Assembly: GCA_037381445.1 (NCBI GenBank)
Contig: JARRQT010000242.1
Coordinates: 1-12,437 of the forward strand
DNA: 12,437 nt
Origin: Calditrichia bacterium
Lineage (GTDB): Bacteria > Calditrichota > Calditrichia > RBG-13-44-9
Direction: 5' to 3'
The position numbers were made by a program, and so were the translations under genes. Shown one piece after another: positions 784 to 1,240 of this stretch (its first letter is position 1; every line of letters starts with the position of its first letter). The notes below the pieces were generated by a model. The model made no database searches and was not told the DNA's origin. It was given only the letters and a program-made list of their open reading frames with translations.

Positions 784-1240
784 GAAGCGGATCAGGCGGT
801 CGCCTGTGCTCCTGGCACGGGAGGAAAGTCCGAACTCCGCAGGGCAGGGTGCCCGGAGAAAATCCGGGGCTTGGGAAGCGAAAGCTTTGCAGGACGGAAA
901 GTGTCACAGAAATTATACCGCCTCATATCTGCTTTTAAAAATCATTAATCAGGGCATTGGGATTGTTGAATGCAGGTATGGGGTAAGGGTGAAATGGCGG
1001 GGTAAGAGCCCACCGGCCGGATTCCGGAAGGAATGTTCCCTCAGGGGGGCGCGGTAACGCCCGGGCCAGACAAACCCCATCCGGAGCAAGGCCAAATAGG
1101 GAAGGATTCTCCCTCGGGAGAGCGAAGCGGTCCGTTTCGTGTTCCGCCGCGGCGGACAAACTTCCGGGTAGGCTGCATCAGATAAATGATCGCCGATTTT
1201 CCCTTGGAAGATAACAGAATTCGGCTTATCGATCCGCTTT
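784..1240 (+). ncRNA. rnpB: RNase P RNA, bacterial type A-derived, lacking P18
   Basis: Conserved motifs GAGGAAAGTCCG (821-832), ACAGAAA, AAGGGTGAAA, GGTAAGAG, AAACCCCATCCGGAGCAAGGCCAAATAG, GGGTAGGCTGC, AGATAAATGA and AACAGAATTCGGCTTA. Terminal helix P1 (784-793 / 1231-1240), P2 (795-801 / 1188-1194) and P4 (826-834 / 1220-1227, bulged U829) all pair. Exact mature ends are uncertain by a few nt. Confidence 0.97.

Follow-up and report, generated by a model that had tools for sequence, protein, structure and literature searches.

RNase P RNA is one of the two universal ribozymes, and to our knowledge the catalogue of its helices is treated as nearly closed. The type A RNA of Gemmata (Planctomycetes) carries an insert in P13 that is not known outside this genus. 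Section 12 of PMC12974513 and Table 3 of PMC2858038 list P5.1, P10.1, P15.1, P16.1, P16.2 and P18.0 as lineage-specific expansion helices; the same section describes the post-ancestral expansions as lying away from the tRNA and stabilizing the fold, and L14 as docking on P8. In the account of structural types given in PMC2858038, type B RNA possesses P10.1 and lacks P14, and type C RNA lacks P13 as well. According to PMC8457005, loss of P18 is known in Aquificales and Chlorobium, and the L9-P1 contact forms a third strut, of minor weight in mesophiles but reinforced in thermophiles.

Here, we analyzed a 12,437-nucleotide stretch of Calditrichia DNA (the window), whose sole Rfam match is a type A RNase P RNA gene (rnpB, RF00010) at positions 784 to 1244; all features given below lie on the plus strand. 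The match covers the full model (positions 1 to 367) with 219.1 bits, against a gathering score of 100, and rnpB is single-copy, this being the only RF00010 match of the genome. Like the E. coli and T. maritima RNAs of this family, the window RNA is matched over its full length, possesses P13 (996 to 1014, with its conserved loop), a P14 tipped by the GNRA loop L14, P6, P16 and P17, and is accompanied by an rnpA gene elsewhere in the genome (PF00825, 68 bits, above the cut-off). The P6 pseudoknot with P16/P17 is evident from covariation between the segment preceding P7 and the P17 loop (z of 12.1 and 8.8), and the P1 flanks of the gene can pair out to about 777-1247. A type B or type C RNA was ruled out, since P13 and P14 are both present and the type A model matches. 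A search of the genome, which is 92% complete, for the protein-only RNase P family was negative.

Several features set the window RNA apart from RF00010. P14 is branched by two hairpins, and 40 nt of it fall outside the model; P18 is absent from the RF00010 alignment of 784 to 1244, leaving a short junction at its site (1167 to 1188); P9 (869 to 895) is lengthened to 27 nt, about 10 bp, and capped by a GAAA loop; P8 (852 to 868), the established docking helix of L14, has 6 bp and a GNRA-like GAAAA loop; and P16 is branched on both sides. Throughout the phylum, P8 consists of 6 bp with a GAAA-type loop, versus 5 bp and a five-base loop in the consensus. In Chlorobium and Aquificales, the type A RNAs described in the relevant passages of PMC8457005 and PMC4227106 resemble the window RNA in having lost P18 with P13 and P14 kept, and in a GNRA-capped P9 that possibly reaches P1. 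Those passages do not mention a branched P14, whereas the Calditrichota insert occurs both with and without P18.

Upstream of rnpB, the window encodes a coiled-coil zinc-ribbon protein (33 to 743; a weak NCBIfam match, used here as context). A scan of the plus strand near the rnpB start for promoters and terminators returned nothing useful, and one contig of a relative, from a run of uncertain kind and with 80% likeness, spans the insert and was counted neither for nor against expression. The neighbors between 1467 and 12280 include a methyltransferase, a MATE transporter, an SNF2-type helicase, a hybrid histidine kinase, an HD-domain protein, a calcium/sodium antiporter, a metallo-hydrolase, pyrE and pyrF.

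The branched P14 is predicted as follows. Its 6-bp basal stem is formed by 1015 to 1020 on the 5' strand and 1061 to 1067 on the 3' strand, with G1065 bulged, and its 3-bp tip (1051 to 1060) closes L14, a GNRA loop of the sequence GUAA at 1054 to 1057. The 30-nt insert is predicted to form hairpin A (1021 to 1034), with 5 bp and the 4-nt loop GGAA, and hairpin B (1035 to 1050), with 6 bp, two of them G-U, and a 4-nt loop; we propose to name them P14.1 and P14.2, respectively. Read from the sequence, the four helices meet with zero unpaired junction bases and would constitute a perfect 4H junction; with the insert deleted in silico, P14 becomes a stem of 9 bp. The initial annotation had placed the base, both hairpins and the tip at exactly these coordinates. 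In a 63-nt piece comprising P14, the four-way junction was both the minimum free energy and the centroid structure. The stability of this piece was no better than that of its shuffles (z of -0.76; 39 of 200 as good), and the full-length fold of the single sequence missed the junction; therefore, the case for the structure rests on comparison.

For this comparison, the 33 insert-bearing genes of the window genome's order were aligned with MAFFT by sequence only. The structure described above pairs in 95.9% of the 628 cells of this alignment, reaching 96.5% in the basal stem and 100% in the tip. Changes on both sides were found in 18 of 20 pairs, comprising 4/6 in the basal stem, 5/5 in hairpin A and 6/6 in hairpin B; covariation in relatives had been proposed at the outset as a check on the hairpins, and all 11 of their pairs show compensatory change. 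None of 500 shuffles equaled the observed pairing and compensation, and slid registers paired in only 30 to 53%. From the same alignment RNAalifold, unaided, returned the identical four-way junction, and pair 1036:1049 of hairpin B was the top covarying pair of the entire RNA (z of 14.3). In 27 of the 33 inserts two hairpins abut, each with 4 bp or more, versus 15 of 6600 shuffled inserts. With covariation and unaided folding in agreement, the presence of two extra hairpins in P14, first suggested by the initial annotation, is upheld, and we regard the predicted branched P14 as confirmed.

In the 44 sequences from other orders, whose short stems show sequence conservation, RNAalifold recovered the basal stem only and not the hairpins, and these sequences were therefore parsed by position. 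The parser, which demands pairing and not pair identity, found two abutting hairpins in 33 of 44 sequences versus 213 of 8800 shuffles. In this as in the other comparisons, kin sequences are not independent of one another. A metagenome scan yielded 54 loci. We left out 11 that duplicated genome sequences and 10 that had another architecture; the remaining 33 were sorted by eye into sets that, with 2 more duplicates dropped, held 12 and 19 sequences. The two-abutting-hairpin test was passed by 7/12 and 17/19 of them. Because the scan selected for a long P14, it tests the shape of the insert and not its frequency.

The insert is typical of the phylum. In our sample of 86 Calditrichota genomes, 83 had a match, and with one fragment lacking P14 set aside, 82 genes were readable; 78 of these carry the insert, in all 8 families. 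It is present in 33 of 37 genes from the window's order (families f1 to f3) and in all 45 from other orders (f4 to f8). The zinc-ribbon gene stands upstream of rnpB in 56 of the 57 loci tested, so the rnpB loci are orthologous. P18 is absent from 37/37 genes in the window's order and present in 45/45 in the others, where our script called 37 of 43 directly and the rest were read by eye. The insert and P18 thus occur together in all 45 P18-bearing relatives, and four genes have neither; since the insert is found in both the P18-less and the P18-bearing groups, by parsimony it predates the loss of P18. The four insert-less genes all fall inside the P18-less clade and, on a tree from which the P14 segment had been left out, require three separate changes. 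In three of them P14 is plain, with a single bulged base where the insert would sit, and the fourth (G023) has a different-looking canonical P13/P14. In this last gene (locus L029), P11 to P14 resemble generic type A, within a gene that is otherwise typical of the order and has the usual upstream gene; judged from its sequence, recombination with a foreign rnpB is possible.

Comparison at the sequence level shows that the conserved part of the insert is the length and stem of hairpin A, whereas the loops are variable. Hairpin A measures 14 nt in 29 of 32 same-order genes, while P12 of the same genomes ranges from 15 to 112 nt. At the fourth pair (C1024-G1031), C-G is found in 31/33 same-order genes and in 10/10 metagenome sequences, and the pair before it, wherever paired in this order, is only U-A, U-G or C-G. 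In the other orders hairpin A mostly has 4 bp, with U-A as pair 1 in 44/44 and C-G as pair 3 in 43/44, so the position of the conserved C-G differs, being fourth in the window's order and third elsewhere. Hairpin B varies from 11 to 22 nt and is sometimes only a linker; in 6 of 33 same-order genes it does not pass the strict test. Loop A is a GNRA tetraloop in 12/32 same-order and 2/44 other-order genes and in 2/10 and 0/19 of the two metagenome sets; in the P18-less order it begins with G in 21/32. Loop B is GNRA in 1/27 and 2/33 genes of the same and other orders, respectively. The L14 tip is GNRA in 32/33 genes where P18 is absent and a closed GNRA in 7/44 where P18 is kept, a mirror pattern that involves two clades and hence amounts to a single contrast.

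Similar inserts recur in other lineages. A GTDB scan for long P14 covered 37 of 64 parts and gave at least 118 loci, which projects to about 220; these counts are a lower bound, the search pattern catching 68 of 81 parsed phylum genes. Of the 118 loci, 33 have P14 segments in common with our phylum set. In 80 hits P14 is intact and the insert lies at its base on the 3' strand; 7 single-hairpin cases with Clostridia and Spirochaetaceae titles were left out, and the other 73 mostly bear Ignavibacteria titles. Two abutting hairpins, allowing one base of slack, were found in 61/73 versus 208/7300 shuffles (loci L042 to L158, e.g., L088 and L110). The closing pair of this insert covaries, being G-C in 70, A-U in 2 and G-U in 1 of the 73 loci, and P18 is present in 63 of them. 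The first hairpin opens with U-A in 59/61, C-G in 51/61 and C-G in 48/61. In a class-wide Ignavibacteria sample (301 genomes searched), 18 of the 136 matching genomes are long, as judged by match length, and in Acidobacteriota a twin hairpin sits at the Calditrichota site in one genome, out of 17 matching genomes of its family. By a rough estimate from A-form fiber values, the 5'-strand and 3'-strand insertion sites lie within about 25 to 55 degrees of each other around the helix axis. A single extra hairpin 3' of P14 was seen in L050, L051, L059, L159, L054, L097 and L130 (Oscillospiraceae, Clostridia, Faecousia, Treponema and Spirochaetaceae titles). Sporadic P14 inserts (L115, L136, L098, L233, L252, L273) include twin hairpins, which lie on the 5' strand in two records titled Acidobacteriota and on the 3' strand in one titled Dehalococcoidia, as well as single long hairpins from metagenome contigs. 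L136 comes from a genome with two RNase P RNA matches, which points to possible contamination.

We favor, with a probability of about 0.55, the reading that the insert is an inherited P14 expansion whose two hairpins provide an extra brace of the specificity domain, acting through the stem of hairpin A and not through the loops. The 6-bp base and 3-bp tip of P14 would remain stacked, giving the usual 9-bp reach with which L14 would still dock on P8, and hairpins A and B would stack on each other alongside P14. The short pyrimidine-C stem of hairpin A may then present a minor-groove packing or A-minor surface to a neighbor, with hairpin B serving as a stacking partner able to shrink. Covariation, presence in 78/82 genes, the fixed length of hairpin A and its near-invariant stem pairs all argue for such a brace, as does the first hairpin of the Ignavibacteria insert, which likewise starts U-A, C-G, C-G. 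Fixed helix length and a conserved C-G pair, the marks of a helix-face (A-minor) receptor, are both found in hairpin A. Against the brace stand the three separate losses of the insert, the failure of hairpin B in the strict test in 6/33 genes, the differing position of the conserved C-G between orders, and the absence of the hairpins from the RNAalifold prediction for the 44 other-order sequences. A mutual-information search for covariation between the insert and the rest of the RNA gave a best z of 5.3, at positions that do not base pair, versus 7 to 14 for helices, in a test of low power, whose top 45 pairs do not include the known L14-P8 contact.

The same losses, together with the recurrence of similar inserts, make near-neutral accretion the main rival, to which we assign a distinctly lower but still appreciable chance. 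Under it, P14 offers permissive sites at which a clean four-way junction leaves the P14 stack undisturbed, and selection acts on pairing alone. Three separate losses, a hairpin B that is reduced or absent in several genes, freely varying loops, a covariation search that saw no tertiary partner, and recurrence in 1/17 genomes of the Acidobacteriota family and in 18/136 matched Ignavibacteria genomes all speak for such accretion. It accounts less readily for retention in 78/82 genes, for the constant length of hairpin A in genomes whose P12 expands freely, and for the near-invariant pairs of its stem; moreover, hairpin A is lost in 0/45 genes of the orders in which L14 is mostly decayed.

The brace could also be cast in a broader form, which we put forward only tentatively and with a rather low probability. 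Here the insert would be an independently re-invented strut, arising in Calditrichota and in Ignavibacteria at two sites that share one face of P14, each time with a U-C-C stem. It would have freed both ancient P8 struts for loss in turn, one clade dispensing with P18 and lengthening P9, the others keeping P18 with a decayed L14 and hairpin A doing the job of L14-P8.

The initial annotation had proposed instead that the GGAA tetraloop of hairpin A compensates for the missing L18-P8 interaction, i.e., that a GNRA loop A docks on P8 in place of L18. We consider this improbable, because 20 of 32 P18-less genes and 8 of 10 metagenome sequences have no GNRA loop at this position, even though the 12/32 that do exceed loop B (1/27) and loop A of the P18-bearing orders (2/44). 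That loop A starts with G in 21/32 P18-less genes, and that hairpin A is one pair longer in their order, would fit a docking loop, but all 45 P18-bearing relatives have the insert, which predates the loss of P18 by parsimony, four genomes lack both, and the Ignavibacteria version coexists with P18 as well (63/73). The length of P9 is a cleaner correlate of P18 loss, measuring 27-28 nt in 37/37 P18-less genes versus 14-25 nt in 43/43 others; a 27-28-nt P9 therefore separates the two groups completely (37/37 versus 0/43). L9 is GNRA in 28/37 P18-less genes versus 3/43 other-order genes. It is thus likely that a lengthened, mostly GNRA-capped P9 compensates for the loss of P18; an optional contact by loop A may exist in addition. 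Three related ideas were also considered. The idea that a long P1 distinguishes the P18-less order was rejected, the flanks pairing over at least 15 bp in 29/36 and 34/43 genes of the two groups; docking of L9 on hairpin A as its sole target was rejected, the long P9 persisting in the four insert-less genes; and for docking of L8 on hairpin A, L8 was found to be the same in insert-less genes.

Finally, long inverted-repeat inserts in P12, P19 and P3 of relatives, near-identical in P12 and P19 of one genome, might suggest that the P14 insert was copied recently from a small palindromic repeat or mobile element and plays no part in the enzyme. However, the genome shows no repeat family of this kind: hairpin B occurs once and hairpin A twice as exact matches, and the best other BLAST hit has an E value of 0.16. 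Deep compensatory change also marks the insert as old, so that a recent repeat origin is very unlikely and an ancient one conceivable.

Set against known expansions, the brace reading describes an element that is partly familiar. Like the expansion helices listed in section 12 of PMC12974513 and Table 3 of PMC2858038, the insert is a peripheral addition that leaves the trunk unremodeled, and its gain is paired with the loss of other struts; unlike them, it lies in P14, where those lists have no entry, and it is a pair of hairpins inserted at two sites on opposite P14 strands in different phyla. The initial annotation had called the architecture possibly undescribed, and our survey of the open literature, Table 3 of PMC2858038 included, found no description of a branched P14, although an earlier drawing may be held in subscription papers or in the supplement of PMC12974513. 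The branched P14 appears to be an undescribed, well-supported variant in the architecture of type A RNase P RNA that is typical of one phylum and has a parallel in another. The Gemmata insert shares with it the P13/P14 subdomain but is located in P13. A branch in P14 across a whole phylum, mirrored on the other strand in Ignavibacteria, enlarges the helix catalogue and leaves the catalytic mechanism of RNase P unaltered. Genes that differ in the presence of the insert, in the presence of P18, and in whether L14 is intact or decayed form natural series for the gain and trade of struts, and cultured genera are among the carriers by record titles (Caldithrix, Melioribacter), which makes the question testable at the bench. 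The fixed 27-28-nt P9 with its GNRA-like loop in P18-less genes may be a separate finding.

Some further peculiarities of these RNAs were observed outside P14. In P16 of the window (1099 to 1168), hairpins on both sides of P17, at the P16.1 and P16.2 positions, make a second four-way junction; genomes G002 and G011 are without hairpins at these positions and without the P14 insert. Long inverted-repeat extensions are found in P12 and P19, at 917 to 985 of the window and in L015 (G011), L027 (G028) and L004 (G002). The P12 extension of the window has no second copy in its genome. In G011, near-identical inserts of about 100 nt are present in both P12 and P19, which suggests a small mobile element.
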